Assembly (NCBI RefSeq): GCF_053078305.1
Contig: NZ_CP166879.1
Length of the DNA: 64,000 bases
Strand: one strand, 5' to 3'
The position numbers and the translations under genes were made by a program. The notes below the pieces were generated by a model. That model saw only the letters and a program-made list of their open reading frames with translations. It was not told where the DNA came from and ran no database searches. Positions 8,104 through 58,827 of this stretch are shown here, piece by piece (the stretch's first letter is position 1; the number at the start of each line of letters is the position of its first letter).

Positions 8104-8352
8104 TGGATCACATACAGTCTTTATAAAGCGCGTACAGGCAGTACAGTCGGAGGGGGCCTGCAATTTATGCTCCTCCTGAGTCTGCTGGCAGAATGCTTTT
8201 CATTTTTTGTGATTTTCTGGTCATTGTCTCATCTGGATATAACCGACATTCAGTTGCTCGTGATGGGGATAACAACATTAATGCTGTTTTTGTCTCTGAA
8301 CGTTAAGGTAGTAGTCATCATTAACCATGTTGCCAGTGGCAACAGTGATTAA
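8104..8352 (+). pseudogene. 3' part of the IS-interrupted membrane-protein gene
   Basis: In frame with 5352..5582 after IS removal (21 codons, then track ORF 8167..8352). The stop lies in the first unit of the 36-bp array. Confidence 0.65.
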
Positions 8353-9120
8353 AAAGCGAGCGGTGTTGCCAGTGGCAACAGAGTACAGAAAATAGTCAAT
8401 GGTGCCAGTGGCACCAGAGTACAAAAAATACTCAATGGTGCCAGTGGCACCATAGTATAAAAAATAGCCAATGGTGCCAGTGGTACCAGAGTACAAAAAA
8501 TAGCCAATGGTGCCAGTGGCACCAGAGTACAAAAAATAGCCAATGGTGCCAGTGGCACCATAGTATAAAAAATAGCCAATGGTGCCAGTGGCACCAGAGT
8601 ACAAAAAATAGCCAATGGTGCCAGTGGCACCAGAGTACAAAAAATAGCCAATGGTGCCAGTGGCACCATAGTATAAAAAATAGCCAATGGTGCCAGTGGC
8701 ACCAGAGTACAAAAAATAGCCAATGGTGCCAGTGGCACCATAGTATAAAAAATAGCCAATGGTGCCAGTGGCACCAGAGTACAAAAAATAGCCAATGGTG
8801 CCAGTGGCACCATAGTATAAAAAATAGCCAATGGTGCCAGTGGCAACAGAGTACAGAAAATAGTCAATGGTGCCAGTGGCACCAGAGTACAAAAAATAGT
8901 CAATGGTGCCAGTGGCACCATAGTATAAAAAATAGCCAATGGTGCCAGTGGCAGCAGAGGTTAAAAAGCGAACAGTGCAGCCAGTGGCAGCAGAGGTTAA
9001 AAAGTGAACAGTGCTGCCAGTGGCAGCAGAGATTAAAAAATGAGCAGTGCTGCCAGTGGCAACAGAGGTTAAAAAGTGAGCGGTGTTGCCAGTGGCAACA
9101 GCGATTAAAAAATAAGCGGC
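8325..9120. repeat. tandem array of 22 x 36-bp units, each with a 15-bp palindrome NNTGCCAGTGGCANN and an A-tract
   Basis: The CCAGTGG core recurs at exactly 8333+36k for k=0..21. Central units alternate two subtypes (..CAGAGTACAAAAAATAG.. and ..CATAGTATAAAAAATAG..); outer units are more diverged. Confidence 0.95.
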
Positions 9121-9192
9121 GTTAAATGTATATTCTGCCTGATTTGTTTTTTTGTTGTCGGTAATACGCAACCTGCGGACTATCTTCTGGTC

Positions 9193-9921
9193 ATGAAATC
9201 ATTCGGAGTAAACACAATGCCCCAGGAGAAAACCGGAGAAGTCAGAAAATCAGAACAAGTTGGTGCTCTGCAGTCATCGCTGACTATTGCCCTTCATACC
9301 CGATATGCGATCCGTCTCTGGGAGGGACGCAGGAATAATCAGAAGGAAGAAAAACAGGAAAAGCGGCCTGACATCATCAGTATGCCCAGGGCTATTGCGT
9401 TTGCGGGTCAGGCAACCAGAGATTCAGCCAGGGATAATCCTTATGCAGATATGATGTTAGTCAGGCTGGAAAATGCCCTGACGAAGGCAACTGAAACAAT
9501 TGAAAAGCATCTTGCGTGGCTTGACGGGATCCTTAAAAACCTGCCGGGACAGATCTCCCTTTCTGATATTAAATCCTCTTCGCCGGTAAATATTGGCGTG
9601 TACAGTAGTTCTCCGGTCGGTTATCGATGTGTATGGCTTCTGATCGGATATGATCGACTGGTCATGAAGGTATTTCAGGTATTTCATTACGGACTTATTT
9701 CCCGCACAAAACGGGATGAGTTGCTGAATCAGGGAGGGTATGCGGTACGCAGGATTTACGGGATTATTCAAAATTATAAATCAGTCAGTGTTACACGTGC
9801 TGATATTTTGTCCGGCACAGCCCGTGGAAAGGAGGCGGTTAACCGCATGGGGGAGCCGGATCCTGACGTGATGAGCGGTAAGAAACGTTCTGTTTATTCA
9901 CCACCGGTTAAAGCGGGGTGA
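9193..9921 (+). CDS. ICE conserved protein (PFL_4669/DUF3158-like)
   Basis: Position immediately upstream of topB with a 4-nt overlap. LHTRYAIRLWEGR matches my recollection of this ICE family; unverified. Alternative start at 9217. Confidence 0.45.
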   Translation: MKSFGVNTMPQEKTGEVRKSEQVGALQSSLTIALHTRYAIRLWEGRRNNQKEEKQEKRPDIISMPRAIAFAGQATRDSARDNPYADMMLVRLENALTKATETIEKHLAWLDGILKNLPGQISLSDIKSSSPVNIGVYSSSPVGYRCVWLLIGYDRLVMKVFQVFHYGLISRTKRDELLNQGGYAVRRIYGIIQNYKSVSVTRADILSGTARGKEAVNRMGEPDPDVMSGKKRSVYSPPVKAG

Positions 9922-11966
9922 GTATGCAACTCTTTCTGTGTGAAAAACCTTCTCAGGCGAAAGATATCGCCCGTGAACTGGCGCTCAGTAAGCGGGGCGA
10001 CGGATACATCGGAGATGACAATATTGCTGTCACCTGGGCGATAGGACACCTGCTGGAACTGGCTGAGCCGGAAGCTTACGGTGAACAGTTCGGTTCCCCA
10101 TGGCGTTCTGATGTGTTGCCGCTGATACCGGAACAATGGCAGATGGTGGTGAAGCCGAAGGTGAAAAAACAACTTATTGTGATCCGGGGGCTGTTAAAAC
10201 GCGCTTCTGAAGTGGTTATTGCCACAGATGCCGATCGTGAAGGAGAAGTGATAGCCAGAGAGTTGCTGGAGTACTGTCAGTACAGAGGGCGTGTCAGGCG
10301 TCTGTGGTTATCTGCACTGGATGAGGCCAGTATCAGGAAGGCGCTGAATAATATTCTCCCGGGCGAACAGACTGCGCTTCTCAGTGAAGCCGGTAAGGGG
10401 CGTGCCCGGGCTGACTGGCTGACAGGGATGAATCTGACCCGGTTGTATACCCTGAAGGCACGGGAACGTGGAATTTCTGGGGTTTTGTCAGTGGGCCGGG
10501 TGCAGACACCCACGCTGGCAATGGTGGTCAGACGGGATCAGGAGATCGCCACATTTGTGCCGGTTTCCTGGTGGCAGGTGATTGTCTGGCTGGAAAAGGA
10601 GGGGCTCCGTTTCCGCAGTAACTGGGTGGCAGCTGAGCAGTACTGCGATGATGAGGGACGTTGTGTGAATGTGCAGGCGGCCGGTGCTGTTCTCGGTCTG
10701 TGCCGTCAGCAGTCCTCTGCTGTTGTACAGGATGTTGTACAGAAGAGGGAGAAAACACCGCCACCTTTGTGTTTTTCGCTGGGAACGTTGCAGGACGCCT
10801 GTTCCCGGAAGTTTGGCATGGGGGCTCAGACCGTTCTGGATATCGCACAGTCCCTTTATGAGACTCACAAAGCAACAACTTATCCCAGGACAGACTGTGG
10901 TTATCTGCCTGCCTCGATGCATGAGGAGAGTTCTGAAGTGCTTGAGGCTGTCGGGCGTTCAGATCCGTCCGTGCTTCCACAACTGGCTGAACTGGAATCA
11001 GGACGGGTATCCCGTATCTGGAATGATAAAAAAATTACGGCTCACCATGCCATTATTCCGACCCGGCAGTTTTTTGACCTCAGCTTACTGAACGGTGATG
11101 AACTGAAGGTATATCAACTGATTCGTCAGCACTATCTGGCACAGTTTCTGCCGGAGCAGGAAGCCGATGTTACTGAGGCAACATTTGTGATTGGGGGGCA
11201 GTTATTCCGTTCCCGCGGAAGAGTGAATGTGATTATCGGGTGGAAACAGTTATTTCCACCGGAAAATCATGCAGATGAAGAAAAGCCTGACAGTGATGAA
11301 AGTGGAAACATATTGCCCCCTTTGATAAAGGGAGAACTCTGTGCTCTGGATGGTGCTGAACAGAAGGAGCTGAAAACCGTACCTCCCCGTCCTTTTACTG
11401 AAGGCAGTCTTATTACTGCGATGAAGAATGCTTCGTCTGGTGTAACGGATCCGGTGCTGAAAAAGATCCTGAGGGATAATGCGGGACTGGGAACGGAAGC
11501 CACACGCGCGGGGATCCTGGAAACGTTATTTGCGCGCAACTATATTGAGAGAGCGGGAAAACATATCCGTTCCACGCAACTGGGAAGAGAACTGGTGGCG
11601 GCATTGCCGGACTCTCTGACAAATCCGGGTATGACGGCTTTATGGGAACAGGCGCTGGATGATGTTGCCCGGGGGAAAATCTCACTGGAGGCGTTTATGG
11701 AGAAACAGCATCAGTGGATCAGGCACCTGGTGTTATCCGGACGTAACCAGACGGTTAATCTGTCAGTGGAATCAGGTCCTTCATGTCCACTCTGTAACGG
11801 TCCGACGGTGAAACGGAAGGGAAAAAGCGGTTTTTTCTGGGGATGCTCCCGTTATCCCGACTGCAGGGGAATTGCTGGTGAGCAGGGAAACAGCAGGGGC
11901 AGGAAAAGAAAAATTAATTTTTCTCATAAACAAAAATCTGGTGATGTCGGAGACAAACTGAATTAA
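9918..11966 (+). CDS. topB: DNA topoisomerase III
   Basis: TOPRIM N-terminus MQLFLCEKPSQAKDIA, DADREGE motif, active-site TTYPRTDC, C-terminal zinc ribbon CPLCNG...CSRYPDC. Confidence 0.9.
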   Translation: MSMQLFLCEKPSQAKDIARELALSKRGDGYIGDDNIAVTWAIGHLLELAEPEAYGEQFGSPWRSDVLPLIPEQWQMVVKPKVKKQLIVIRGLLKRASEVVIATDADREGEVIARELLEYCQYRGRVRRLWLSALDEASIRKALNNILPGEQTALLSEAGKGRARADWLTGMNLTRLYTLKARERGISGVLSVGRVQTPTLAMVVRRDQEIATFVPVSWWQVIVWLEKEGLRFRSNWVAAEQYCDDEGRCVNVQAAGAVLGLCRQQSSAVVQDVVQKREKTPPPLCFSLGTLQDACSRKFGMGAQTVLDIAQSLYETHKATTYPRTDCGYLPASMHEESSEVLEAVGRSDPSVLPQLAELESGRVSRIWNDKKITAHHAIIPTRQFFDLSLLNGDELKVYQLIRQHYLAQFLPEQEADVTEATFVIGGQLFRSRGRVNVIIGWKQLFPPENHADEEKPDSDESGNILPPLIKGELCALDGAEQKELKTVPPRPFTEGSLITAMKNASSGVTDPVLKKILRDNAGLGTEATRAGILETLFARNYIERAGKHIRSTQLGRELVAALPDSLTNPGMTALWEQALDDVARGKISLEAFMEKQHQWIRHLVLSGRNQTVNLSVESGPSCPLCNGPTVKRKGKSGFFWGCSRYPDCRGIAGEQGNSRGRKRKINFSHKQKSGDVGDKLN

Positions 11967-12148
11967 AATTGCGGGCGAGTTCTGGTATCACCCTGTTGAC
12001 CACAGTGGGGCTGACAGCCCTGAGAGGTCCGGTAACCCGTTATGCACACGGCGGGGTTACAAGGCACATGCACTCCGTGAAAACCGTGCCGGGAGTCGCT
12101 CTCTCCGGAGAAGATGAGAATCAACACCGGGATTTGGTATCCCCCTGA

Positions 12149-12179
12149 AGCACCGGCTTGCCGGTGCTTTTTTGTTTTT
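12149..12179 (+). terminator. intrinsic terminator after topB
   Basis: AGCACCGGC-TT-GCCGGTGCT stem followed by TTTTTTGTTTTT. Confidence 0.7.
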
Positions 12180-12232
12180 GGTTAGCTGTTGACTTTTTCC
12201 ATCAGTGATTTCAGTCTGTCCGGGCACATAAC

Positions 12233-12515
12233 GTCGCTCCGGCGACCACCAATGCTCCACAAGTGGCCTGAGAGGAGCGCCTTCGGGTGGCTACATGTCG
12301 CTTCGGCGACCACCAATGCTCCATAAGTGGTCTGAGAGGAGCGCCTTCGGGTGACCACATCCCGCTTCGGTGGGCACCAATGTTCCGTTGATCTGAGAGG
12401 AACGCCTTCGGGTGATCAACACCCCCGTAACCTGAAAGGGGATGTGCAGCCAGGATGTTTCTGGTGGTGGTAAATCTGCCCACCTTTGAGAGCAGATATC
12501 GTCAGTCATGACGAT
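12233..12515 (+). ncRNA. STAXI-type repeated-pseudoknot element, copy 1 (three 64-nt modules plus a conserved ~90-nt tail)
   Basis: Modules start at 12233, 12297 and 12361. Each has a tetraloop hairpin (GTCGC-TTCG-GCGAC), CCAAT, and a pseudoknot with covarying stems. G-U pairs are only possible in the + sense. Confidence 0.7.
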
Positions 12516-12644
12516 GAAGGTTTTCTTTAACTGTTACTGAGTCAGCCGGAATAGTTCTGTTCCGGCTCCCTGACGGGAATATCACAACCCGTCAGGGATG
12601 ATGATGTTCTCTGTCTTTCCGATACTGAGAATGGAGATATCATT

Positions 12645-13112
12645 ATGACTGCAAATACTTCTTCTGCAAACGCTAAAACTGAGTACTTCAATCTGACACT
12701 GAAAGGCCTGGGGTATCTCAGCAACATTCGTCAGGTTAATCATCAGAACGGGACATTTCTCAGTTGTGTTGTGAATGCACTGAGTGGTCCGACGGACAGC
12801 CCGTCCTATGTGCGTTTTGATGTGACGGTTGCCGGTAAAGAGGCAACTTCCCTGATTGCCCGCTGCCAGAAAGCGGTGGATGAAGATCGCAAGGTGCTGA
12901 TTGGTTTTACCATGAGCAACCCCTCTACTGACATTTTTACCCTTAACCGGGGTGAACATGCCGGTGAGCAACGCGTCAGTCTGAAAGCCCGCCTGATCAA
13001 GGTGGAGTGGATCAAAATAGGCCAGGACATGGTTTATAAGACTGAAAAATCGGAATCCATACCGCCACAGAATGGCAATACCCCGCGGGAATACGCAGAA
13101 AATTCTTTCTGA
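12645..13112 (+). CDS. DUF3577 / STY4534-like ICE replication-associated protein
   Basis: YFNLTLKGLGYLSNIRQV... matches my recollection of this family. Located upstream of ssb, as in related islands. Confidence 0.5.
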   Translation: MTANTSSANAKTEYFNLTLKGLGYLSNIRQVNHQNGTFLSCVVNALSGPTDSPSYVRFDVTVAGKEATSLIARCQKAVDEDRKVLIGFTMSNPSTDIFTLNRGEHAGEQRVSLKARLIKVEWIKIGQDMVYKTEKSESIPPQNGNTPREYAENSF

Positions 13113-13421: not shown

Positions 13422-13982
13422 ATGGCATCGCGTGGAGTGAATAAAGTCATACTGATTGGTCATCTGGGACAGGATCCGGAAATCCGTTATTTCCCCAACG
13501 GCGGAGGTGCAGTGGCAAATCTGACGCTGGCCACCACTGATACCTGGCGTGATAAACAGAGCGGTGAAATGAAGGAACACACTGAATGGCACCGTGTTGT
13601 GATTTACGGAAAACTGGCTGAGATTGCCGGTGAATACCTTCGTAAAGGTTCACAGGTGTATATTGAAGGTCAGTTAAGAACCCGGAAGTGGTTCGATCAG
13701 CAGAATGGTGTTGATCGTTATTCCACGGAAGTTGTTGTGAGTGTCAATGGTACCCTGCAGATGCTGGGGTCTCCGCGTCAGCAGCAGGGGGGTGGAAATG
13801 TTTCATCTGCTCCTGCTCAGGGAGGATGGGGACAACCACCACAAAATGCACAACAATCAACGGGAAAAAACGGTCAGGCTTCCTCAGGAAGCGGGGGAAT
13901 GCCGCCGATGGACTTTGACGATGATATCCCCTTTATGGGGCGTGGGTATGGCGTTGAACGACGGATTATCCATGTCATCTGA
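13422..13982 (+). CDS. ssb: single-stranded DNA-binding protein with a 15-aa extension after the DDDIPF tip
   Basis: OB-fold N-terminus [28 protein letters not shown]...TEWHRVV, Gly/Gln-rich linker, MDFDDDIPF followed by [15 protein letters not shown]. Confidence 0.9.
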
Positions 13983-33151: not shown

Positions 33152-33601
33152 ATGCTGAAAAAAACAATTCTGGCGTTATGTATTTCCGCACCATTTCTGG
33201 TTGCGGGCTGTGATGATGCGACAAAGGAGAATGTAAGTAAGAAGGCGGCAGATATAAAGGAAGCTGCGCAGACTCAACTCAGTGATGTGAAGGATGCCGC
33301 GGAGGAAGTGAAAATGCAGGCTGTCGGAAAGGTGGCAGAGGTTTCTGAAGCGGCTCAGTCCGGGCTCAGCGAGGTGAAGGATGCCGTGGAGGAAGTGAAA
33401 ACACAGGCAGCCGGAAAGGTGGCAGAGGTCTCTGAAGCGGCTCAGTCCGGGCTCAGCGAGGTGAAGGATGCCGTGGAGGAAGTAAAAACACAGGCAGCCA
33501 GAAAGGTGGCAGAGGTCTCTGAAGCGACTCAGTCCGGTCTCAGTGATGTGAAGGATACCGCTCCTGAAAAGGGGGCTGAAATATCCGTAACGGAGGAGTA
33601 A
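33152..33601 (+). CDS. lipoprotein with three 28-aa LEA/apolipoprotein-like amphipathic repeats
   Basis: Lipobox LVAGC. An 84-bp DNA repeat encodes VAEVSEAAQSGLSEVKDAVEEVKTQAAGK three times. Confidence 0.6.
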   Translation: MLKKTILALCISAPFLVAGCDDATKENVSKKAADIKEAAQTQLSDVKDAAEEVKMQAVGKVAEVSEAAQSGLSEVKDAVEEVKTQAAGKVAEVSEAAQSGLSEVKDAVEEVKTQAARKVAEVSEATQSGLSDVKDTAPEKGAEISVTEE

Positions 33602-43099: not shown

Positions 43100-43348
43100 T
43101 CACTCAGGATCTGATGGAGGTTTTTTACGAGAATTAAACTTATCGATCAGATTAAAAACTATCGCTGCTAGTGTTATCGATGTACCTGCTATGCACCCAA
43201 ACACAATAACTCTTATCATTTGGTGGGTCGGGAAAAAAAAGAATCCTTTTGTTAGGTAAATAAATAAAGCTCCTCCCCCCATCAAAAGAAATCCACTGAT
43301 GATACAAAAGAGGCATGCATATATGAACAATACAATGTAAGCAATCAT
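43100..43348 (-). CDS. cdiI: CdiI immunity protein (82 aa, integral membrane)
   Basis: 4-nt overlap with the cdiA stop. Hydrophobic helices IVLFIYACLFCIISGFLLMGGGALFIY and VIVFGCIAGTSITLAAIVF. Confidence 0.7.
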   Translation of the reverse strand: MIAYIVLFIYACLFCIISGFLLMGGGALFIYLTKGFFFFPTHQMIRVIVFGCIAGTSITLAAIVFNLIDKFNSRKKPPSDPE

Positions 43349-46300
43349 TTCCCCTCCTCCTTCTTCGCGCTAGAAGAGAACTGATTATTACTACTTGCTT
43401 CTTTTATATATCCACCAAGAAATTCACTACCAAAAGATCCTGTCGCATCAAATATAAATCCCGGAAACTCTTTCCCAGTAACTGAGTTTACTATTCCGGG
43501 AGCATATACTCCAAATGCTCCACCCAATCCGGCCCCGGCAGCAGCCCCTCCAATAGAGCCTGTATTTGGACCATCGGTAAAGAATGCACCACCCATCGCA
43601 ATTCCGACGTTTTGTCCGACAGTTCTCCCCGGCGCAAGCATACCCGCAATGCCTGAACTGGCACTGCTTTTCCAGTCCCAGTTTTTGTTTTCATTACCTG
43701 GCTGGCTTAAATCAAACCACTGGTAACTTCCATTGGCTATCTCCGCGACGACTCCACCACTGACCATTTTACCGACCGAAGCAGCAGGCCCCAGATACCA
43801 TGCCCCGGCAATCATTACACCATCCTGATATCCATCCACGATCACTTTCGTGATATTGGTGCTGTCCGGCATATCACCTTTCGCTATCTTATCCAGTCCA
43901 GCCTGTGTTTGTTCCGGTGTCAGATTATTGTCCACCGCGTACTTGTTCCATGATGTAGCCGCAGCAGCATTGCTTTCAAAACCATCACCGAAGCTGAGCG
44001 CATTATTCTCAACCGTCGTCTTACCTGACTGTGCTCCGGCTACCGCTGAAGCTCCCGAATCTCCCACCAGACCACCGGCCAGGCCGGCAGCAACCGTTGC
44101 CAGTGTCGAGACCGTCTGCTTCTCTGTCCCGCTCAGTTCACTCACCGGCTTACCGTACATCTGTGTGGCTATCATTCCCACCACCTCGCCGGTGGCTGCG
44201 CCTGCGGCACCAGCCAGAGCATTCTTACCCTGTGCCAGAGACAGGGCTGCATTCACTACTGCATGAGCTGCCACACGTCCCGCACCGTCCGGGGTGGTCT
44301 GTTTGATAATTTCAGCAATATACGGTGCTGCACCACCTGCCAGGGCTGCACTCAGATTACCGCCGGCCAGCCCCTGTACTGCTGCCGTTGCGGCCTGTAT
44401 CGCCTGCTGGTATTTGCCTCCCGTTCCAAAACCTGAGGCCGCCATACCGTTATTGTAGGCCCGCTGCGCCACATCCTGTTCCGTGAACGGTTTTCCTGCT
44501 GCCTCAAGCTCCTCACGGGCCTGATTCAGTGCTGCCGGGTCCCGCTTCGCTTTCTCACCAGCTATCTGGCCTTCCGTTCTGGCAATATCTGCCACCTGGT
44601 TACCAATCTCACCAATGAGCTGCGCCTGCTGCAGTCGCTGCTGCTCTTTTTCCCTGTCAAAGATGGGGGACAGCGTCTGGTTTGCATGTGCTGCGTCACG
44701 GTTCAGGTCTGCCACATCCTGTTTCTGGCTCTGCGTATCCCGGATGGTGATATTCCCGGCAGACACAGCCGACTGAGTGGTGCTTTCTGCATGGCCTTCA
44801 TGATTTGCACCAACCAGCAGATTGTTGGCCATATTTCCCGCGAACTGGCCACCGATGCTGCCGCCAGTGCTGATACCCACGCTCTGGTGTTCAACTTTGT
44901 AATCAGCACGATTTTCGATATCACGGAAGCCCAGTGTACCGGTATCCAGCCGGTTTTTATCTGCCGTTGCCGTGGACGCAATCACCGCACCGTTCAGTTG
45001 CGTATGCTGTCCGGTGGTGACATCAAACCCGCCCCTGCCGGCAAAAATCCCCGTCTGCTCCTGCACACTGTCATAGTTACTGTGCATTTTATCCCGGCTG
45101 AGGCTCACACTCGCCGAACCGCTCATGGACCCGAAAGTGAAGCTGCCTCCGGCACTGGCATTCTGCTGCTTACTGTCATAACGGTCACTGTCCTGCTCAC
45201 TGGTCAGTGTCAGATGACGACCGGCATCCACTTTCACCGTTTCACCGCCGGCCTGCACGCCGGTAAGCGTGGTGTCCCGCCCGCTGATAATGGTCAGGCG
45301 GTTTCCCGCATCCACCGTGGTTTCTGTATGGGTGGTACCGTTGCCTTTTTCACTGCCCTTACCCTGGTTTGCGCTGGCTGAAACACTGATACCCCAGCCT
45401 CCGGCCCCCACACCGATACCGACACCCACACTGCCGCCACTGGATGAGTTCTTTCCTTCCAGCTTTGACGTGTTTTCTGCTGATACCAGATTCACGTCAC
45501 GGTTTGCCTGCAGCAGAACGTTGTTCCCTGCCTTTATCTGACTGCCCTGTATCGTCAGGTCACCATCCACGTCCTTCACGCCGGAGCCGGTGGCCTGAAT
45601 ACTGAGGTTATTACCTGCGGTCAGGGCGCTGTTCTTCGCCACCGTCTGCTCTGACTGCTGTTCTGATTTCGAAGACTGGCTGCCGTAAGAGAGGCTGATA
45701 CCCACGGCATTGTTATTCTCTTTCTGGTTGCCCTGTGCTTCTGCCAGTCGTCCGGCCTGCACGGCCTGAGCCCCCGAGAGCGCGGCCTTCACCCCCTGCA
45801 GGGCTTCAAGCCGGCTGTTTCCGGCAGATTTCGCCGCCTGCACGGTCTCCACCGTCGTGTTCAGGGCGCTGCCCACTGTGCCGGACAGGGCAAGCGTCAG
45901 ACCGGAGGTTTTCTGCTCCACCGAATGCGTCTGCACATGCCGGTCTGTGACGGCGCTAATGCTGACCTCCTTACCACTGAGTGCCATGTCCCTGCCGGCA
46001 ATCAGGTCAGCACTGTTGGCGCTCAGCCGGTTACCTGCCTGAAGGGAAACATCACCGTGAACACTCCCCACCGTGCTGCCTTTCTGTGTGCTGTCTGTTG
46101 CGGTGTCCGTGACTTTCAGACTCTGGCTGCCCACACTGAATCCCACACCTCCGGAGCTCATCAGCCCGGATTTTTTCTCCTGTTTCAGGTGTGTTTCACG
46201 GTTGCTTTCTGTCAGCGTGCCGATACTCAGGTCATTTCCGGCAGCCAGGGAGACACGGTTATCCCCGGCCACACTGCTGCCCGTGACGTTCAGATTATGT

Positions 46301-49300
46301 CCGGCACTGATACTGACCGTATCCCCGTTCAGTTCACTGCCCGTCATGGTCCGGCGGTCAGTGACATCATGCGTGGTTGTGGTGGTTTTCGATAACATCC
46401 CGCTGCTGCCGGTCACTTTATGGTATTCATCCAGCGAGCGGGTATTCTGTGCACCGGTCAGCGTCACGTCATGACCTGCCATCAGGGCCAGGCCTTTCTG
46501 AGCTGACAGCGATGCCGCCTGTGACGTCATATCCCGTCCGGCGGTCAGCGTGACATCACCGTTACCGGCAAGCGTGCTGCCCGTACTCTGTGTGACGCCC
46601 TGCGACAGACGATTATTTTTATCCCAGATAATATTGTCCTGCGCGGAAGTGGTCACTGTGGAAAGCGTCATATCCCTGCCCGCACTGAGTTGCGTCAGGC
46701 TGTCCTTACCCTGATTCACCACCGTTGCAGCCGTCAGATTCATATCCCGTCCGGCCTGCAGCACCAGTCTTCCCTGGTCGTTCTGCACATACACGCCGGC
46801 CACACTGTCGATACTGGTACGTTCAAAATGGTTCTGTCCGGCGTCGCGCTGTGCCGTACGGGTGGTGGTGGTCAGACTGATATCCCGTCCGGCCATCGCC
46901 AGCAGGCTGTCCGTGGCCTGCAGCAGCCCGCCGGTACTGTTAATATCCGTCCGGGCCGTCAGGCTGACATTTGCTCCCTGAATGGAGCCGGCCTGGTTGT
47001 GAATGTTTTCTGCACTGAGCTGCACGGTCTGCTTCCCGGCCAGTTTACCGCTGTTAAACAGGTCACCATCCAGCTTCATCACCATGTCCCTGCCGGCAAT
47101 CAGCGCACCGGCACTGTTCACATCACCGGGTTTTACACGGGCATACACCTGAGGTACCTGAACTGTCTGCGTGCTGCCGTCCGGCAGTGTCACCGTGGTG
47201 TTAACCAGCCAGACAATATCCCCGGTCAGTAACGCCATCTGCTCAGCCGTCAGCGCCACACCCGGTTTCAGGTTGTATTGCTTACCAAATGCAATACCCG
47301 CATCCATTAATGCCTTAAACTGCTCTTCATCACTGCCGTATCTGTCCAGGTACCGTTGCCCGGTCAGAGCGACAACCTGCTCTCGAATCAGACGCTGCTC
47401 GTAAAAACCGTCTCCCAGACGTTTGAGCATGTTATCCCCGTTCTGAGAAAACGCCTTCTGCATGTAATCACTGCCCAGCCACATCTTCTGGTTCGTAAAA
47501 CGCGGGTCCGTTTCAACCAGATATGGCACATTCACTGCCGGATTTGTTTTAAACAGACTGCTGTCCGGCAGACGGGTATCCGGCCCGGCAACATGGATAC
47601 TGCCCTGAGGTGTGCTGACTTCAAACTGCTGCCCCGGCAACAGAATGACCGGTTCACCGGCAGACACCACCGGGCGAAGCGGTATCCGGTCAGTAGCGGC
47701 TACTGCCGCATCCACATTTCCGGCCTGTCCTGTCTGTACATCCGTTCCCTGTGGCTTCAGAGGAGAAAGCGTGACCTGGCTGCCCTGAATCTGTCCGTGG
47801 CTGGTGAGCTCTCCCGGCTTCAGCGTAATGCTCTGAATTACAGTGGGCGGAGTGTACTGAGAGGTTTTCTCCCCCTGCTTATCCTTTCCTTTTTTCCTGA
47901 TACGGTAATAATACGTGGATGTTCCTGAGTCCGTAACATGCCGCTCGCCACTGACACTGACATTTTCCACGCTTCCTGACGGAATGGTCAGCAGGCCGCC
48001 TGCAACAACCTGACTCTTATCATTAAGCAGTTTGTCTGCCACAATCGTCATGCCGGCACCGGACAGAATTTTTCCCGGGTCGGAGTCTTTTACCCGGGTT
48101 TCTTCCACGGTACGGGTGTAATCATACTGCGTGAATTTATCTCTGGCGCCTTCCGGTGTATGCAGTTTTTTCAGTGAGTTACTGGAATCGTTATCCACAT
48201 AAACGCCCGGTTCACCGGCGCTCCAGCGTTTATCTGAGCCGCTGAGCTGATACTCAGTCACCTTTTCCGTGGAAACCACCACGCGCTCCGTGGTGAAATG
48301 GTCATTGACGTTATTGATTTGTCCGGCACTCAGTACCAGATATCCGGCGGCTTCAATAGTGGCACTGTGATTATTCAGTACACCGGCTTTCCCCGTGGCG
48401 GCACCATTCGCATCCAGCATGCCACCAGTATGCATATCACCTGCACTGTAAATCAGGCTGTGCGTCCGGTTATTCAGGGTCTGTACCCCTAAGTCCACAC
48501 GCTCACGCCCGGCCAGCGTCGCCGCCACGCCATTTTCTTCCAGATTATTAAATGTGGCAGCGCTGACACCAACAGCATCGCCGTAGATTCGCCCGGTACC
48601 GGAATTCGTCAGGGTGTTCGCCTGAAGATGCGTATATTTCCCGTCAATCAGCCCACGGTTCAGCAGTGTGTCCGTCACGTTAAGCCAGGTCTGCCCGGCA
48701 CTGATTTCACCTTTCTCTGTGTTTTCAAGGCGGATGCTGTTCAGGTCAAGCCGGCTGCCTGCCAGCAGGCTGCCGGTATTAGAGACATCGCCATTAACGG
48801 AAAGCGTAAGGTTTCCGTTCGCAATAGTCTGACCACTGTTGCTGAACGTTGTGTTACTTTTCAGCGTCATATCGCCCAGCGAAAGCAGTTTCCCGTCACC
48901 ACCGAGCTGACCGGCATCCACAGATACTGACTGCCCGGCCTTAACCACGCCGTCACGGTTCGAAAACGCCAGCTGACGGCCACTGACAGACAATGTCGCG
49001 CCGGAAGAGAGGACGCCGTCATTATTACTGAGCGTCCTGTCTGCCATAACCGTAAGCGCCCTGTCTGCCAGAATACTGCCCTCCTGGTTATCAAGGTCCT
49101 GCGTCGTGATGTGTATTGTCTGCGCTTCCAGCCCCTGACCGGTATTCTGCGTGTGGCGATTGATAAACTGCAGGGCGTTCAGCGTAATGGCGGAACCACT
49201 GCGAATCAGACCAGAGACGTTGTCCACAACGCCCCGTACACTGTTGAGCAACATGTCGCCCACAGACTGTATTTGTCCGTGGCTGTTCTGCAGACCTCCC

Positions 49301-52290
49301 GTATGCAGACGGAGTTCACCTTCACTGACCAGCCGGCCCCCCTCACGGTTATCCAGCGAGGTGGTGCTCAGGTCAGCTGTCGTTTTCGCCCCCACGGTCC
49401 CGCCCCGGTTATCCATTGCTCCGGTACTGACAGTCAGTTCCTGCAGGCTGTTCAGCGTACCGCGTCTGTTATCCAGCGTCTGGCCTGCGGTATTAATGCT
49501 GATACCCCTCCCCTGAATAAGACCGGACTGATTGTTCAGCGCCTGGCTGTTCCAGCCGAGCAGACCGTTTGCCACCATCTGACCGGATGTATTGTTAACC
49601 ACGCCTGCAGTCAGGGACAGAGCATCTCCCGACAAAAGCACACCGGCAGTGCTGTCCAGTGTGCCGGCATTCAGCGTCATCGGACCCTGACTGATAACCC
49701 CGCCCCGGTCACCACTATTACGGTTACTCAGTGTGTCAGCACGGAGATTCAGCGATGCACCGCTCTGTATCAGGCCGCCGGCATCGTTGATGATATCCGT
49801 CGAGGAAAGTGTCAGTGACTGCTGTGCCACCAGTCTGCCGCCCTGATTATCAAACCGTGTGACATCCAGCCTGCTGTTACCGTTGCTGACCACCGTCCCC
49901 TGCTGATTTTCCAGCACACTCAGGTGCGTATTCAGGTCCCCGCCGGCGGCAAGCGCCCCTTCCTGATTACTGACATCACCACCACTCAGCAACATATCCG
50001 TCCCGGCCTTCAGTGCGCCTTTCTGGTTCATCAGCGTACCTGACGATATCTGTAATGACGTCTGACTCCCCAGCACGCCCTGACGGTTATCGAGCGTTCC
50101 GGCGTTCAGGGTCATATCCTTCTGACCCGCCATAAATCCCTGCTGGTTATTCAGCATACCGGCCCGCACTGTCAGGGTACCGGCGCTGCTGATACCACCC
50201 CGTGTTTTCGTGTTCCGGTTACTGAGTACCCCGTCCTGTACATCCAGCGTCATGTCACTGCCGGACTGAATCAGACCATCATCAGAGACCAGTTCGCTGC
50301 CTGACACAGACAGCGTTTTCTGTGAAAGCAGTCTGCCGGACGTATTATCCAGCGCACCATCCAGCGTCACAGACAGCCCGTCAGCCACCACCGTACCCTG
50401 GTGGTTATTCAGATTCCCTGCCGAAATATCCAGCCTGCCGGCGGACTCCATTCGTCCCTCAGTATTGCTGACAGCCTGCTGTGTTTTTATCCTGCCCGTT
50501 CCGGCAGCAGCTGAAATCAGTCCGTTGTCGTTATTCAGCGCCTGTGTATTAATCAGGATGTCACGGCTGGCAAGCAGACGTCCCTGCTGGTTATCCACGG
50601 CGCCGGTTGTCCTCACCTGCAGACTGCCTGACTGCGCCGCCTGCACTTTCCCCCTGCGATTATCAAGGCTCAGTGCATCCAGACGCACCGCGCCATTTGC
50701 CGCAAACAGCCCTTCCCGGTTATCCACGCTTCCCGGCAGACTCAGCGAAAAATCCCCTGTTCCCGTCTGAGTCAGACTGCCTTTACGATTTGACAGGCTT
50801 TGTGCCGATATCTGCAGTGTGTCGGCATTTATCGTGCCACCATTATTGCTGAAGTGCCCGACAGTCCGGGCGGAAAGCGTACCGGCACTCAGTTGCGCAT
50901 TCTGTGTGGACAGATTTCCACTGGTTGCATCCAGCTCAGTATGTTGTCCCTGTATCCGGCTGTTGCTTAAATCCAGCCCCTGCCCCTTCAGTTGCATGTC
51001 CCCACCGGACAGAACCTGTCCGTGTGCCGCCAGTTCGCCGGTGGTACTGACAGTCAGGTTGCCCGCTGCCGCCAGACGTCCGTCATCTTTCACCCCGGCG
51101 GCCAGCAGACTCCGCTCACCGCCGGTCAGACGCGCTGTCTGAATCCGGGTGTTGCGACGTGATGCCACAGAGCCTGTATGGGTGAAGACACCATCACTCT
51201 GTATCTGCGTATCCTGCCCCGCATAAACAGAACCACTGTTATGCAGCTCCCGGGTTGTCGCCAGATGCACATCCGTTTTCGCACTGATACTGCCACTGTT
51301 TTCAATACGTCCGTCAGCCGTCAGGGTAACCGCCCCTGCCTGTGCACCAATATGACCGGCGTTACGAACACCCACCCCCGTTTCCGTACCGACAAGGCGA
51401 ATTTTTCCGGCATACATTCCGCCAAGACTGGCCACATCCAGTGCCATCTGAGGCTGTGAAGAGACATCACCGGTCTTTTTCTCAATCTGCCCGTGCGCGA
51501 TATCCACATTGTTACGTCCTGTGGTCACTTTCAGATCCTGCGCCCAGATACCCGCATTAATCTTCACAGACCGGGCAATGATATCGGTATAATCCGTGCG
51601 CGAGGCATCCATCCCTTTGCCCGTAACCTGAATCTCACCACGTTCAACACTGAATCCGGTCAGACTGCCGTTTTTCATCTGCGGCTGCCCCGTGGTCAGC
51701 GTGGCCCGGTTCGCATTAATAAAACCGCACCCGTCGCAACTGATGCCGGCCGGGTTCGCAATCACCACCTGCGCCTTTTTACCGGCAACCTCAACAAAAC
51801 CGTTCAACTGGCTGGGATTGCGACTGTTCACTTCATTAAGAATGATTCTGGCCTCTCCCTTAGCCAGCCACGGGTTCCCGGCCACCATGCCACCCAGTTG
51901 AGTCTGCACATTGTTATGGGCATTATTCAGAATGACGCCCTGGTTACCGACGTCGAACTGGCTGTATGCGTTATGTGAAACCCCGCCGGCAGAAGGCGTC
52001 TGAATATTCACCTGCGGAATGCCGCTGGCCGTCTGCGTAATCGTGGGCTGCTGATACCCTGGTGCGCCATGGTCTGCGACAATGCCTGCAGCACTGACAG
52101 AATGCACCATCCCCGAAGCCAGCCACAAAGAGAATGCAAGCGGCGTGACACGGCAGATACGTTGCCTGTGTGGATATCCTGTGCGGGAGGACAGTGATGT
52201 ACCGGCGCGACCGGAACGGGCAATATCTGCCACCACCATCAGCATTCCCCGGGCTTTGTTAAAAATAATGCGGTAACAATTTCTGTTCAT
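43345..52290 (-). CDS. cdiA: CdiA contact-dependent inhibition exoprotein (2981 aa)
   Basis: ESPR signal MNRNCYRIIFNKARGMLMVVADIA; TPS domain (NAYSQFDVGNQGVILNN, IANPAGISCDGCGFINA); long FHA-type repeats; VENN at 44002-44013 followed by a 218-aa CT. Confidence 0.95.
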   Translation of the reverse strand: MNRNCYRIIFNKARGMLMVVADIARSGRAGTSLSSRTGYPHRQRICRVTPLAFSLWLASGMVHSVSAAGIVADHGAPGYQQPTITQTASGIPQVNIQTPSAGGVSHNAYSQFDVGNQGVILNNAHNNVQTQLGGMVAGNPWLAKGEARIILNEVNSRNPSQLNGFVEVAGKKAQVVIANPAGISCDGCGFINANRATLTTGQPQMKNGSLTGFSVERGEIQVTGKGMDASRTDYTDIIARSVKINAGIWAQDLKVTTGRNNVDIAHGQIEKKTGDVSSQPQMALDVASLGGMYAGKIRLVGTETGVGVRNAGHIGAQAGAVTLTADGRIENSGSISAKTDVHLATTRELHNSGSVYAGQDTQIQSDGVFTHTGSVASRRNTRIQTARLTGGERSLLAAGVKDDGRLAAAGNLTVSTTGELAAHGQVLSGGDMQLKGQGLDLSNSRIQGQHTELDATSGNLSTQNAQLSAGTLSARTVGHFSNNGGTINADTLQISAQSLSNRKGSLTQTGTGDFSLSLPGSVDNREGLFAANGAVRLDALSLDNRRGKVQAAQSGSLQVRTTGAVDNQQGRLLASRDILINTQALNNDNGLISAAAGTGRIKTQQAVSNTEGRMESAGRLDISAGNLNNHQGTVVADGLSVTLDGALDNTSGRLLSQKTLSVSGSELVSDDGLIQSGSDMTLDVQDGVLSNRNTKTRGGISSAGTLTVRAGMLNNQQGFMAGQKDMTLNAGTLDNRQGVLGSQTSLQISSGTLMNQKGALKAGTDMLLSGGDVSNQEGALAAGGDLNTHLSVLENQQGTVVSNGNSRLDVTRFDNQGGRLVAQQSLTLSSTDIINDAGGLIQSGASLNLRADTLSNRNSGDRGGVISQGPMTLNAGTLDSTAGVLLSGDALSLTAGVVNNTSGQMVANGLLGWNSQALNNQSGLIQGRGISINTAGQTLDNRRGTLNSLQELTVSTGAMDNRGGTVGAKTTADLSTTSLDNREGGRLVSEGELRLHTGGLQNSHGQIQSVGDMLLNSVRGVVDNVSGLIRSGSAITLNALQFINRHTQNTGQGLEAQTIHITTQDLDNQEGSILADRALTVMADRTLSNNDGVLSSGATLSVSGRQLAFSNRDGVVKAGQSVSVDAGQLGGDGKLLSLGDMTLKSNTTFSNSGQTIANGNLTLSVNGDVSNTGSLLAGSRLDLNSIRLENTEKGEISAGQTWLNVTDTLLNRGLIDGKYTHLQANTLTNSGTGRIYGDAVGVSAATFNNLEENGVAATLAGRERVDLGVQTLNNRTHSLIYSAGDMHTGGMLDANGAATGKAGVLNNHSATIEAAGYLVLSAGQINNVNDHFTTERVVVSTEKVTEYQLSGSDKRWSAGEPGVYVDNDSSNSLKKLHTPEGARDKFTQYDYTRTVEETRVKDSDPGKILSGAGMTIVADKLLNDKSQVVAGGLLTIPSGSVENVSVSGERHVTDSGTSTYYYRIRKKGKDKQGEKTSQYTPPTVIQSITLKPGELTSHGQIQGSQVTLSPLKPQGTDVQTGQAGNVDAAVAATDRIPLRPVVSAGEPVILLPGQQFEVSTPQGSIHVAGPDTRLPDSSLFKTNPAVNVPYLVETDPRFTNQKMWLGSDYMQKAFSQNGDNMLKRLGDGFYEQRLIREQVVALTGQRYLDRYGSDEEQFKALMDAGIAFGKQYNLKPGVALTAEQMALLTGDIVWLVNTTVTLPDGSTQTVQVPQVYARVKPGDVNSAGALIAGRDMVMKLDGDLFNSGKLAGKQTVQLSAENIHNQAGSIQGANVSLTARTDINSTGGLLQATDSLLAMAGRDISLTTTTRTAQRDAGQNHFERTSIDSVAGVYVQNDQGRLVLQAGRDMNLTAATVVNQGKDSLTQLSAGRDMTLSTVTTSAQDNIIWDKNNRLSQGVTQSTGSTLAGNGDVTLTAGRDMTSQAASLSAQKGLALMAGHDVTLTGAQNTRSLDEYHKVTGSSGMLSKTTTTTHDVTDRRTMTGSELNGDTVSISAGHNLNVTGSSVAGDNRVSLAAGNDLSIGTLTESNRETHLKQEKKSGLMSSGGVGFSVGSQSLKVTDTATDSTQKGSTVGSVHGDVSLQAGNRLSANSADLIAGRDMALSGKEVSISAVTDRHVQTHSVEQKTSGLTLALSGTVGSALNTTVETVQAAKSAGNSRLEALQGVKAALSGAQAVQAGRLAEAQGNQKENNNAVGISLSYGSQSSKSEQQSEQTVAKNSALTAGNNLSIQATGSGVKDVDGDLTIQGSQIKAGNNVLLQANRDVNLVSAENTSKLEGKNSSSGGSVGVGIGVGAGGWGISVSASANQGKGSEKGNGTTHTETTVDAGNRLTIISGRDTTLTGVQAGGETVKVDAGRHLTLTSEQDSDRYDSKQQNASAGGSFTFGSMSGSASVSLSRDKMHSNYDSVQEQTGIFAGRGGFDVTTGQHTQLNGAVIASTATADKNRLDTGTLGFRDIENRADYKVEHQSVGISTGGSIGGQFAGNMANNLLVGANHEGHAESTTQSAVSAGNITIRDTQSQKQDVADLNRDAAHANQTLSPIFDREKEQQRLQQAQLIGEIGNQVADIARTEGQIAGEKAKRDPAALNQAREELEAAGKPFTEQDVAQRAYNNGMAASGFGTGGKYQQAIQAATAAVQGLAGGNLSAALAGGAAPYIAEIIKQTTPDGAGRVAAHAVVNAALSLAQGKNALAGAAGAATGEVVGMIATQMYGKPVSELSGTEKQTVSTLATVAAGLAGGLVGDSGASAVAGAQSGKTTVENNALSFGDGFESNAAAATSWNKYAVDNNLTPEQTQAGLDKIAKGDMPDSTNITKVIVDGYQDGVMIAGAWYLGPAASVGKMVSGGVVAEIANGSYQWFDLSQPGNENKNWDWKSSASSGIAGMLAPGRTVGQNVGIAMGGAFFTDGPNTGSIGGAAAGAGLGGAFGVYAPGIVNSVTGKEFPGFIFDATGSFGSEFLGGYIKEASSNNQFSSSAKKEEGK

Positions 52291-52305
52291 TCTGATAAAC
52301 CTGAC

Positions 52306-52833
52306 TTATCTCTCCGGCACATCCACAGCAAGCGGGTGCTGCACACGCCACTGGCGCGCCTCTTCACGACTGACCTGTGCACCCCGGAAATTCATCACCC
52401 GTAACCCGGTCTGCTGCCCACGGTGGTACAGCGAACGCCAGCACAGACGGGGAAAAATATCCTGCCGGACAAGACGACTCATATCCGGAGTGTGTCCAAA
52501 AGGGGCAACCCAGTCACAGACCCACATCCGGTCGCCGCTGTTCCAGTCCGACTGAGGCATGAGAATTGCCGGCTGCGTAAGATAACGCGCCTCTGCCTCC
52601 GGGCTGAGCCAGGCCTGGCTCATGAAGAAAACCGGTCGCCCCTGCTCTGTTGCCACCACATACTGTCGGTGCTTAATCACCGGCAGCTGCAGGTCCGGCA
52701 GGGTATGCAGTGGCGCATCACGATGCAGGGGGGAGTGCATCCACAACCAGACGGCCGCCCCCAGGACTTCCGCCTCATTGACCGGCTCACCGGAATACAG
52801 GGGACTCAGAACGTCATATTTCCCGTTACGCAT
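52306..52833 (-). CDS. cdiC: CdiC, HlyC/TAAT-family toxin-activating lysine acyltransferase
   Basis: LGAAVWLWMHSPLHR, WNSGDRMWVCDWVAPFG parallel the HlyC motifs LGHVSWLWASSPLHR, WTSGDRKWFIDWIAPFG. Located between cdiB and cdiA. Confidence 0.85.
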   Translation of the reverse strand: MRNGKYDVLSPLYSGEPVNEAEVLGAAVWLWMHSPLHRDAPLHTLPDLQLPVIKHRQYVVATEQGRPVFFMSQAWLSPEAEARYLTQPAILMPQSDWNSGDRMWVCDWVAPFGHTPDMSRLVRQDIFPRLCWRSLYHRGQQTGLRVMNFRGAQVSREEARQWRVQHPLAVDVPER

Positions 52834-52842
52834 GAAACTTTC

Positions 52843-56511: not shown

Positions 56512-56559
56512 CTGCAGACTGTTTTCTGTTCTTCCTGGTTATGTTCTGAGTGATGATGA

Positions 56560-56588
56560 TTGACGCCTTTTATACGCTCTGATATGCT
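56560..56588 (+). promoter_or_regulatory. sigma70-like promoter in front of STAXI copy 2
   Basis: TTGACG-17 nt-TATGCT. The -35 lies 44 nt upstream of the first STAXI hairpin, the same spacing as TTGACT in copy 1 and within 1 nt of TTGACA in copy 3. Confidence 0.45.
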
Positions 56589-56603
56589 CAGAATGCATTA
56601 TCT

Positions 56604-57467: not shown

Positions 57468-57518
57468 GCAGATGAGTTTTTCTGTTGTGTTCACGGCACA
57501 ACAGAAAAACTCATCTGC
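57468..57518. repeat. perfect 22-bp inverted repeat with a 7-nt spacer (lox/FRT-like architecture)
   Basis: GCAGATGAGTTTTTCTGTTGTG-TTCACGG-CACAACAGAAAAACTCATCTGC, 49 nt upstream of the recombinase ATG. Confidence 0.9.
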
Positions 57519-57567
57519 CGAACGTACAGCTGTTTAAGGTAAAAATTATTATGTGCAGGAGAAGTTG

Positions 57568-58826: not shown

Positions 58827-58827
58827 C

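Follow-up and report, generated by a model that had tools for sequence, protein, structure and literature searches.

Identity and Setting of the Element

The 64,000 nucleotides (nt) of contig NZ_CP166879.1 (assembly GCF_053078305.1) that were analyzed here, and that we call the window, carry a non-coding element of repeated pseudoknot units between topB (9918-11966, directly upstream) and a gene at 12645-13112 on the + strand. An earlier note, made from the letters alone, had taken this element for the first of three copies of the STAXI motif (RF01728), and comparison with Rfam agrees. A cmscan search of the whole window gave three STAXI matches above the gathering score of 40.5, all on the + strand: copy 1 at 12360-12525 (76.2 bits, E = 3.2e-14 for the whole window), copy 2 at 56603-56768 (90.9 bits), and copy 3 at 58870-59035 (93.6 bits). 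The fourth and last Rfam match at gathering thresholds, also on the + strand, was to EFASI (RF02957), and at permissive E-values other Rfam families near the STAXI copies gave chance-level matches only. The STAXI scores in the window are far above chance, and copy 1 is a true member of a known family that was described by Weinberg et al. in 2010 (PMC2864571), is classed by Rfam as 'Gene; sRNA' (small RNA), and has since been catalogued without an assigned function.

The neighborhood expected of STAXI, made up of ssb, topoisomerase, anti-restriction, and integrase genes, is entirely within the window, and Pfam confirmed each of the namesake gene classes that the earlier note had listed. Besides topB, these are ssb (13422-13982), which follows the DUF3577 gene and a 70-amino acid (aa) open reading frame (ORF), a PF12835 integrase gene (57553-58470) after copy 2, and the gene for ArdC (61959-63035), 2.9 kb after copy 3. 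Pfam and RefSeq annotation relate the locus to Escherichia coli chromosomes that are 99.6% identical to it and bear an integrating conjugative element (ICE) of the SPI-7/PFGI-1 type, and its genes identify the host element as such an ICE (SPI-7/PFGI-1, ICEclc family). The gene at 12645-13112, the first after copy 1, encodes a DUF3577 or STY4534-family 'ICE replication protein' according to Pfam, NCBIfam, and the RefSeq annotation of the 99.6%-identical locus; RefSeq does not annotate STAXI at that locus. Copy 1 is preceded by dnaB, parB, STY4528, PFL_4669/AcaB, and topB, in that order, and is followed by DUF3577/STY4534, a small ORF, ssb, Rpn, pilL2, traD, the type IV secretion genes, and cargo. 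Around the other two copies the order is DUF4282, STAXI copy 2, EFASI, the PF12835 integrase, a small ORF, STAXI copy 3, five small ORFs, and ArdC.

Copy 1 Is an Array of Five Pseudoknot Units

Copy 1 is a five-unit array that extends from 12233 to 12521 on the + strand. The earlier note had read it as three tandem modules with an exact 64-nt period, followed by a conserved tail, the whole spanning 12189-12515. The module starts at 12233, 12297, and 12361 stand, and Tandem Repeats Finder reports 12233-12415 with a period of 64, 2.9 copies, and 86% matches; module 3, however, lacks the 3-nt linker and is 61 nt long, so that the period is not exact across all three and successive pseudoknot cores follow one another at intervals of 64 and 61 nt. 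The sequence ATCGTCA-GTCA-TGACGAT does lie at 12498-12515 as described, but the supposed plain tail consists of two further pseudoknot units. The span also needs adjusting at both ends, given that the element really ends at ∼12521-12525 and that 12189-12232 lies outside the motif, being a promoter-like site and a short 5' leader. The Rfam model (153 positions) aligns in copy 1 to module 3 plus the tail, which leaves modules 1 and 2 as extra units.

Each canonical module begins with a 5-bp hairpin, the loop of which is TCCG or TTCG in modules 1-3, followed by CA, CCAAT, and an H-type pseudoknot. In the pseudoknot the 5' half of stem 1, a linker of 1-4 nt, and the 5' half of stem 2 are followed by TGAGA, the 3' half of stem 1, the inner hairpin GCC-TTCG-GGT (present in 3/3 canonical units), and the 3' half of stem 2. 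Tetraloop hairpin, CCAAT, and pseudoknot are present in every module as the earlier note had it, and all of the pairings it claimed hold when read on the sequence. Module 1 (12233-12296; single-unit model match at 12249-12294, 53.4 bits) opens with the hairpin GTCGC-TCCG-GCGAC (12233-12246) and CCAAT (12249-12253); GCTCC (12254-12258) pairs with GGAGC (12274-12278) in stem 1 and GTGGCC (12263-12268) with GGCTAC (12289-12294) in stem 2, with TGAGA at 12269-12273 and the inner hairpin at 12279-12288. This module is absent from copies 2 and 3. Module 2 (12297-12360; match at 12313-12358, 54.8 bits) has the hairpin GTCGC-TTCG-GCGAC (12297-12310), CCAAT (12313-12317), stem 1 GCTCC (12318-12322) with GGAGC (12338-12342), stem 2 GTGGTC (12327-12332) with GACCAC (12353-12358), TGAGA (12333-12337), and the inner hairpin (12343-12352). 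In module 3 (12361-12421; match at 12377-12419, 66 bits) the hairpin is CCCGC-TTCG-GTGGG (12361-12374) and CCAAT lies at 12377-12381; stem 1 is formed by GTTCC (12382-12386) and GGAAC (12399-12403), stem 2 by (G)TTGATC (12387-12393) and GATCAA(C) (12414-12420), with TGAGA at 12394-12398 and the inner hairpin at 12404-12413. Hence the stem covariation reported among the window modules is present, in stem 1 as GCTCC/GGAGC twice and GTTCC/GGAAC once and in stem 2 as GTGGCC/GGCTAC, GTGGTC/GACCAC, and (G)TTGATC/GATCAA(C).

The two remaining units complete the array, and with them copy 1 has three canonical units, a degenerate unit, and a terminal unit, where at least two repeated units, and usually three, are expected of STAXI. 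The degenerate fourth unit (12422-12471) was placed by its Rfam alignment to model unit 2 and by its counterpart in other genera. Its stem 1 joins CCCC(C) (12422-12426) to GGGG (12438-12441), TGAAA takes the place of the loop at 12433-12437, the weakly assigned stem 2 joins ACC (12430-12432) to GGT (12469-12471), and an enlarged loop contains the hairpin CCAG...CTGG (12450-12464). The terminal unit (12474-12525), which corresponds to Rfam model unit 3, was identified by a pairing test and is only weakly terminator-like in the terminator scan; it pairs ATCTGC (12474-12479) with GCAGAT (12492-12497) in stem 1 and ACCTT (12482-12486) with AAGGT (12517-12521) in stem 2, TTTC following, and holds TGAGA (12487-12491) and the hairpin ATCGTCA-GTCA-TGACGAT (12498-12515). 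In every genus the canonical units are followed by a weaker unit and then by a conserved terminal unit. Stem 1 of the terminal unit is paired at 6/6 positions with its own partner in 71% of 77 sequences, compared with 10% when partners are taken from other sequences, and stem 2 covaries (ACCTT/AAGGT, ACCTC/GAGGT, TTCTT/AAGAA, ATCTT/AAGAT, and ACTTT/AAAGT).

Mechanically called ORFs of 72-162 aa on the - strand run antisense across all three copies (12211-12483, 12291-12509, 56539-56790, and 58569-59057). The two over copy 1, 12211-12483 and 12291-12509, are almost certainly spurious, and antisense ORFs over STAXI in general are probably artefacts of structured G+C-rich repeats. An annotated Pectobacterium ORF, ECA0527, has likewise been reported as 'antisense' to the STAXI transcript.

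Covariation and the Folding Strand

Homologues were gathered from one genome per species with a pattern that fixed loop bases only and left the stems free, which makes the invariance of CTGAGAG and GCCTTCGGG partly a product of construction. The scan returned 120 loci, of which ∼90 are true STAXI and the high-GC matches are chance terminators; the genera represented are Xenorhabdus, Photorhabdus, Pantoea, Erwinia, Citrobacter, Cedecea, Yersinia, Mixta, Tatumella, Superficieibacter, and others, with an occasional Pseudomonas. A single-unit covariance model, which held only stem 2 and the inner hairpin and no stem 1 information, then yielded 184 units, 84 of them distinct and aligned, from >10 genera. 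A first alignment had been pre-filtered on pairing, and all of the figures relied on come from the second.

Among these 84 distinct units the covariation proposed from the window modules is borne out, with 97.9% of alignment cells paired compared with 84.1% after shuffling and 0/500 shuffles as high. Both sides of the pair have changed in 12/14 pairs, including 5/5 in stem 1 and 6/6 in stem 2, and sliding the 3' partners by 1-3 columns reduces pairing to 32-51%. The non-Watson-Crick pairs point to the strand: they are all G·U on the + strand in the window modules, and in the homologues 132 are G·U or U·G compared with 18 that are A·C or C·A on the same reading. The + strand, co-directional with the genes, is therefore the one that folds, as the earlier note had argued. 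CCAAU, UGAGA, and UUCG are invariant loops across units, UUCG being near-invariant in the 84 modules, a figure to be read with a search pattern and model that both favored UUCG. The inner 3-bp stem under the C(UUCG)G loop is closed by a conserved G·U pair in 78/84 modules. Pseudoknot-free folding of both strands, for the whole element and for single units, gave weak z scores, at -2.4 versus -1.5 as RNA and -2.75 versus -1.9 as DNA, so that folding energies separate neither the strands nor the two chemistries. The loops of the 5' hairpins were considered as an RNA signature of UNCG/GNRA switching and rejected, being too varied (UCU, CAU, UUCG, GUAA, UACG, and others).

Promoter and Boundaries of the Element

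Upstream of copy 1, topB ends in a strong intrinsic terminator on the + strand (12147-12178) with a 10-bp stem, GAAGCACCGG/CCGGTGCTTT (12147-12170), and a T-run, which was found by the terminator scan and is predicted to insulate copy 1 from topB transcription. Beyond it we read from the sequence a promoter-like site, TTGACT-17-CAGTCT (12189-12217, + strand), which falls below the scan threshold and combines a good -35 with a weak -10 hexamer. It ends 15 nt 5' of the first hairpin, in the register seen in other arrays, and the predicted start of transcription is ∼12224. The best match to TTGACA-16/18-TAnnnT has its 3' end 28-36 nt upstream of the first CCAAT, and 13-16 nt 5' of the first hairpin, in 62/81 non-redundant arrays; shuffled upstream sequences placed a match in this register in a mean of 2.5 arrays (maximum 7), and the opposite strand in 3. 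Among the 62 promoters we counted 55 distinct spacers, which fall into 33 clusters, so that drift in the spacers has left the hexamers conserved. The same register recurs in copies 2 and 3 of the window and on a 3.1-kb plasmid described below. Thus, a sigma-70-type promoter is coupled to STAXI at a fixed distance, and this distance places the RNA start ∼7-9 nt before the first hairpin.

The two distal copies delimit the element from both sides. Copy 2 with its promoter, TTGACG-17-TATGCT (56560-56588), occupies 56560-56832 on the + strand, the element itself (56604-56832) consisting of two modules and of the two tail units that copy 1 also has. For copy 3 the corresponding stretch, on the + strand too, is 58828-59099, with the promoter TTGACA-17-AAAAAT at 58828-58856 and the element at 58871-59099. 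The three window copies are near-identical over 12294-12529, differing by two substitutions and one indel in a stretch that begins 3 nt before a hairpin and runs slightly beyond the terminal unit, and their flanks are unrelated, which delimits the functional unit. Such near-identity is the mark of a recent duplication or of gene conversion inside the ICE.

At its 3' end the element has no conserved intrinsic terminator that we could find in other genera. The U-rich tract after the terminal unit of copy 1 is flagged by the window scan as a weak terminator-like site, and it is not conserved in those genera. Since no conserved terminator follows, STAXI is most likely the 5' part of a long leader to the DUF3577-ssb genes. 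Copies 2 and 3 are surrounded and followed by an excess of terminator-like sites (10 compared with 2.4 ± 1.4 expected, and 17 compared with 4.9 ± 2.1, 14 of them co-directional), and the secretion-system genes show no enrichment. As a side observation, terminator-like hairpins between 56400 and 64000 occur at 3-4 times the level of shuffles and mostly on the coding strand, unlike in the rest of the ICE.

Genes and Leader Elements Downstream of STAXI

Across the arrays, the first real genes after STAXI are co-directional with it and fall into three classes by identity and distance: DUF3577 at ∼200-260 nt, the PF12835 integrase at ∼750-840 nt, and varied small proteins at ∼190-200 nt. Genes that are so diverse and yet share one direction fit a generic 5' module. 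For DUF3577 we found no Protein Data Bank relative by sequence, and a single-sequence AlphaFold model reached a predicted local distance difference test score of only 34; among the downstream proteins PADLOC gave no match, and the Pfam and NCBIfam matches were to DUF3577/STY4534 only.

A second leader element lies between copy 1 and the DUF3577 start codon (12568-12644, + strand), where a hairpin, CCCTGACGGG-N10-CCCGTCAGGG, leads into a pyrimidine-rich tract and then the ribosome-binding site. The same arrangement precedes many start codons, as a CCCGACGGGAA...TTCCCGTCGGG hairpin, a segment that is the complement of the loop side of the hairpin as well as of the ribosome-binding region, and a T-run; it has no Rfam match. 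In the window its sites are 12568-12644, 59170-59230, 59636-59706, and 60316-60380, with the hairpin CCCTGNCGGGA...TCCCGNCAGGG and usually a T-run. Two of these (59636 and 60320) stand before genes that have no STAXI, and the second element is therefore a separate device. Its three segments change together across genera, and a strict three-part match was obtained at 8/85 loci compared with 0/30 shuffles; it looks like a switch between terminator, anti-terminator, and sequestration of the Shine-Dalgarno sequence.

The long interval between STAXI and the integrase holds a CATTTGG-type repeat, an inverted repeat, and EFASI. In the window, EFASI occupies 57268-57425 on the + strand (cmscan 53.2 bits, cut-off 51.2), ∼440 nt after copy 2 and 128 nt before the PF12835 integrase gene, and a perfect 20-bp hairpin (57468-57518) stands between EFASI and that gene. 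The interval between copy 2 and EFASI contains at 56985-57095 the motif CCATTTGAAATTTGG and the inverted repeat GCGTCACTTT...AAAGTGACGC; the same pair, which appears as 'GACCATTTGGAACATTTGG' in many other genera, is found on the small plasmid NZ_CP059920.1 (431-530), again between STAXI and EFASI. The motif and inverted repeat are possibly a recombination site of the PF12835 integrase or an origin of transfer (oriT).

Three further features of the ICE lie away from the STAXI copies. Just upstream of AcaB/PFL_4669 and adjoining an IS66 insertion lie 20.8 copies of a 36-bp unit, TGCCAGTGGCACCAGAGTATAAAAAATAGCCAATGG, with an identity of 91% (8367-9114); they could be an iteron or centromere-like array, or could encode a repeat protein on the - strand (ORF 8278-9171). 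The conjugation-gene region contains an 87-bp tandem repeat of 3.3 copies and 92% identity (33278-33560). Between the conjugation genes and STAXI copy 2, a 2,981-aa ORF on the - strand lies beside an ShlB/FhaC-type transporter gene (PF03865), and this cargo (43345-54582) is predicted to form a two-partner secretion pair.

STAXI on Other Replicons

STAXI-like sequence occurs on 41 plasmids, and a search for a phage origin gave no match in 50,697 phage records. The order of the distal part of the window is repeated on pSGI4, the circular form of the Salmonella ICE SGI-4, with STAXI, EFASI, the integrase, STAXI, and ArdC further on; on a Klebsiella IncF plasmid STAXI is followed by the integrase alone. 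The extreme case is NZ_CP059920.1, a 3,140-bp E. coli plasmid in which the sole recognizable gene is that for Rep_1 (PF01446), a rolling-circle initiator. Within ∼900 nt of non-coding DNA it carries the promoter, a STAXI that scores 139 bits, the best seen, the repeat and inverted-repeat site, and EFASI (77 bits). We found no match on it to the pC194/phiX-type nick consensus (CTTGATA and variants), and PLSDB types it as 'mobilizable' despite the lack of a relaxase gene. STAXI has thus been retained on a plasmid that offers it no establishment protein to regulate, and since STAXI persists on plasmids that encode no ICE proteins, a host factor is favored as its partner.

Role of the Element

RNA from STAXI has been recorded in two species. 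Strand-specific RNA sequencing (RNA-seq) of Pectobacterium atrosepticum gave a 228-nt transcript annotated '3' UTR: topB, STAXI sRNA' together with an adjoining segment of 228 nt, and three STAXI loci in all are expressed there (PMC4710047). In E. coli, STAXI was detected in vesicles by DNase-treated quantitative reverse-transcription PCR, and STAXI and EFASI were among the most abundant vesicle RNAs of one strain (PMC12370729). With the fold and its strand, the coupling to a promoter, the sharp boundaries of the unit, and this RNA expression at the orthologous site in another genus established, STAXI is very probably an RNA leader transcribed from its own promoter.

The promoter and STAXI together would form a portable cis-acting cassette. 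The compact pseudoknot array would fold as it leaves RNA polymerase and would act through a host factor to secure productive expression downstream, whether by polymerase read-through of terminator-like leader hairpins, by exclusion of Rho, by protection of the 5' end from decay, or by some combination of these; copies 2 and 3 would play the same leader role for the EFASI-integrase unit and for the operon leading to ardC. The promoter-proximal placement of STAXI is that of put-type antiterminators. Taken whole, a cis-acting cassette in the form of an RNA leader with its own promoter is the best explanation that we can offer, and we put it forward tentatively; the particular mechanism, a cassette through which a host factor promotes read-through or stability, is possible but doubtful. 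Several observations weigh against it. Known RNA antiterminators, put of phage HK022 for example, consist of a pair of simple stem-loops and not of a pseudoknot array. Protection of a 5' end needs only one hairpin, which suggests that five conserved pseudoknots with invariant loops would be over-built for that purpose. Terminator-like sites after copy 1 (12.5-22 kb) are not enriched (8 compared with 7.4 expected), the -10 hexamer of copy 1, CAGTCT, is weak, and NZ_CP059920.1 keeps STAXI with no protein gene downstream, so that any cargo there is EFASI or nothing. In E. coli EDL933 grown in LB medium, moreover, the STAXI loci gave 1-6 RNA-seq reads only (PMC5331693), from which it follows that a consensus-like promoter is not simply constitutive here.

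Other partners and other modes of action could be served by the same fold. The array might be a leader operator with several sites for a single-stranded DNA (ssDNA)-binding protein of the element or the host (Ssb, DUF3577, or an ArdC-type protein) that shuts off the establishment genes when ssDNA is lacking. The gene 32 protein of phage T4 offers a precedent, since it represses the mRNA that encodes it by way of a 5' pseudoknot. Neighboring genes do encode such proteins (ssb, topB, and the N-domain of ArdC), cooperative or multimeric binding would be well served by repeated identical units, the invariant CCAAU, UGAGA, and UUCG loops suggest a conserved partner, and near-silence in established cells would fit repression (PMC5331693). 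Against this, the 120-250 nt between STAXI and the ribosome-binding site are structured, unlike the unstructured tract of gene 32, and STAXI also heads units that contain no ssDNA-binding gene, its unit on the Klebsiella IncF plasmid having the integrase alone and that on the 3.1-kb plasmid encoding no protein; an operator of this kind thus seems unlikely to us. STAXI might also be an abundant, stable, nuclease-resistant RNA that acts in trans on a host protein or defense factor, as a sponge or decoy, the downstream genes being merely co-transcribed, and the Rfam class 'Gene; sRNA', the high abundance in vesicles (PMC12370729), the presence of STAXI on a plasmid with no gene downstream of it, and the U-rich, terminator-flagged tract after the terminal unit in the window would agree with this. 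That tract is not conserved, however, the element lacks a consistent terminator at its end and is regularly followed by a co-directional gene or RNA, and no GGA-type or other known sponge motif survives the covariation (GGAGC, GAAAC, and GAATC), so a trans-acting RNA is improbable as well. A CsrA-type sponge in particular was rejected, the GGA at the loop-stem junction being replaced in the GAAAC and GAATC variants. The tandem, compact pseudoknots with invariant loop bases also resemble small pseudoknot aptamers, and ToxI type III antitoxins are tandem pseudoknot-forming repeats between a promoter and a gene. Yet no expression platform overlaps the units, the next regulatory hairpins being 50-150 nt away and occurring also without STAXI, and the number of units varies from 3 to 5; as to an antitoxin, the units diverge by compensatory changes and are not near-identical processing repeats, and the downstream proteins match no defense or toxin model and differ between copies. 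A ligand-sensing riboswitch, which Weinberg et al. had scored as 'switch: no' (PMC2864571), or an antitoxin-like repeat RNA is accordingly most improbable, and a type III toxin-antitoxin system was rejected for lack of an adjacent toxin match in PADLOC, Pfam, or NCBIfam and of near-identical repeats.

The remaining alternatives concern ssDNA, a possibility that Weinberg et al. had themselves raised (PMC2864571). Folded as the + strand during conjugation or rolling-circle replication, STAXI could be a priming site for the complementary strand (sso/ssi). It is the Rep_1 plasmid that carries the best-scoring STAXI (139 bits), with EFASI; the neighbors include ssb, topB, and 'ICE replication' genes, and several copies lie on the same strand of one element. 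Covariation would also be expected, since sso function rests on structure and not on sequence (PMC4595007), and covariation alone is therefore compatible with ssDNA. Priming of this kind leaves unexplained the conserved duplex-type sigma-70 promoter at a fixed 14-15 nt from the first hairpin as well as the transcripts seen by RNA-seq (PMC4710047), and the G·U-closed C(UUCG)G loop of 78/84 modules stabilizes RNA and not DNA, an argument made by Weinberg et al. for the conserved loop (PMC2864571). No nick site was found on the Rep_1 plasmid with which to orient the displaced strand, and folding energies set apart neither strands nor RNA from DNA; we judge a priming site decidedly unlikely. In an Frpo-type ssDNA promoter the transferred strand, which folds, must be the template of the downstream genes (PMC11541004), and this candidate was rejected given that STAXI has no long promoter-bearing hairpin and folds on the coding strand, not the template; no partner sequence complementary to the -35 and -10 hexamers was seen downstream, the hexamers being linear and upstream. 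The earlier note did not choose between RNA and transferred ssDNA; with a conserved promoter at a fixed distance and the published RNA-seq, RNA is most likely the functional form when weighed against an Frpo-type ssDNA promoter. The same sequence might also work twice, recruiting host priming as folded ssDNA on the strand that enters the recipient or is displaced in rolling-circle replication, with the duplex promoter then transcribing the leader of the establishment genes, which would make STAXI, the inverted repeat, and EFASI, the block kept by the Rep_1 plasmid with no accessory protein, a minimal cis-acting establishment or mobilization module of ICEs and small plasmids; this is a speculative reading and a very unlikely one.

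STAXI marks the heads of operons for ssDNA handling, recombination, and anti-restriction in ICEs of the SPI-7/PFGI-1 type and in some Enterobacterales plasmids, and the functions of such operons decide whether a transferred element becomes established in a new host. If promoter and STAXI do form an expression cassette directed by a host factor, the spread of pathogenicity and resistance islands would prove to be under the control of an RNA element of a new kind, which could also serve as a useful portable part; if not, the locus is an ordinary member of a known motif. What is new here is the coupling to a promoter, the five-unit anatomy with its exact boundaries, the leader context, and the case of the rolling-circle plasmid. 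The promoter coupling, the boundaries, the fold of the tail, and the lack of a terminator make the function of STAXI experimentally tractable.

Comparison with Known Systems

Copy 1 shares with the rest of the STAXI family its repeated pseudoknot units, UUCG-capped inner hairpins, enterobacterial host, and ssb, topoisomerase, integrase, and anti-restriction neighbors. It differs in having five units where the Rfam model has three and a 5' hairpin for every canonical unit, which produces the 64-nt period; in most genera there is a single 5' hairpin and the units are ∼46 nt long. EFASI, the partner motif of STAXI, is likewise without an assigned function, and its position before the integrase fits the description of its family. 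It has another fold, however, and accompanies the integrase-linked copy 2 only and not copy 1.

Among elements of known function, T4 gene 32 shares with STAXI a 5' pseudoknot that heads the mRNA of an ssDNA-binding protein, but there a single pseudoknot is joined to an unstructured tract, whereas STAXI has five units followed by structured RNA and many of its copies do not precede ssb. ToxI likewise consists of tandem pseudoknot repeats between a promoter and a gene; there, however, the adjacent toxin cuts repeats that are near-identical, whereas STAXI units covary and the adjacent genes are varied. Frpo/ssi and sso elements are also structured and non-coding, lie by ssb and anti-restriction genes in several copies, and fold in one orientation. 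Frpo, in contrast to the coding-strand pseudoknot array of STAXI behind its duplex promoter, is a long hairpin that rebuilds the -35 and -10 sequences on the template strand; the link to rolling-circle plasmid origins (sso) is the one STAXI on the Rep_1 plasmid. For the cis-acting leader that we favor, the nearest counterparts are put of phage HK022 and EAR of Bacillus, RNAs that act in cis on the transcribing polymerase with no need of an element-encoded protein. With them STAXI shares a promoter-proximal position at operon heads and a mobile element as host, and terminator-like hairpins follow copies 2 and 3. It has no likeness to put in sequence or structure and no enrichment of terminators after copy 1, so that the comparison with put is one of functional analogy only.

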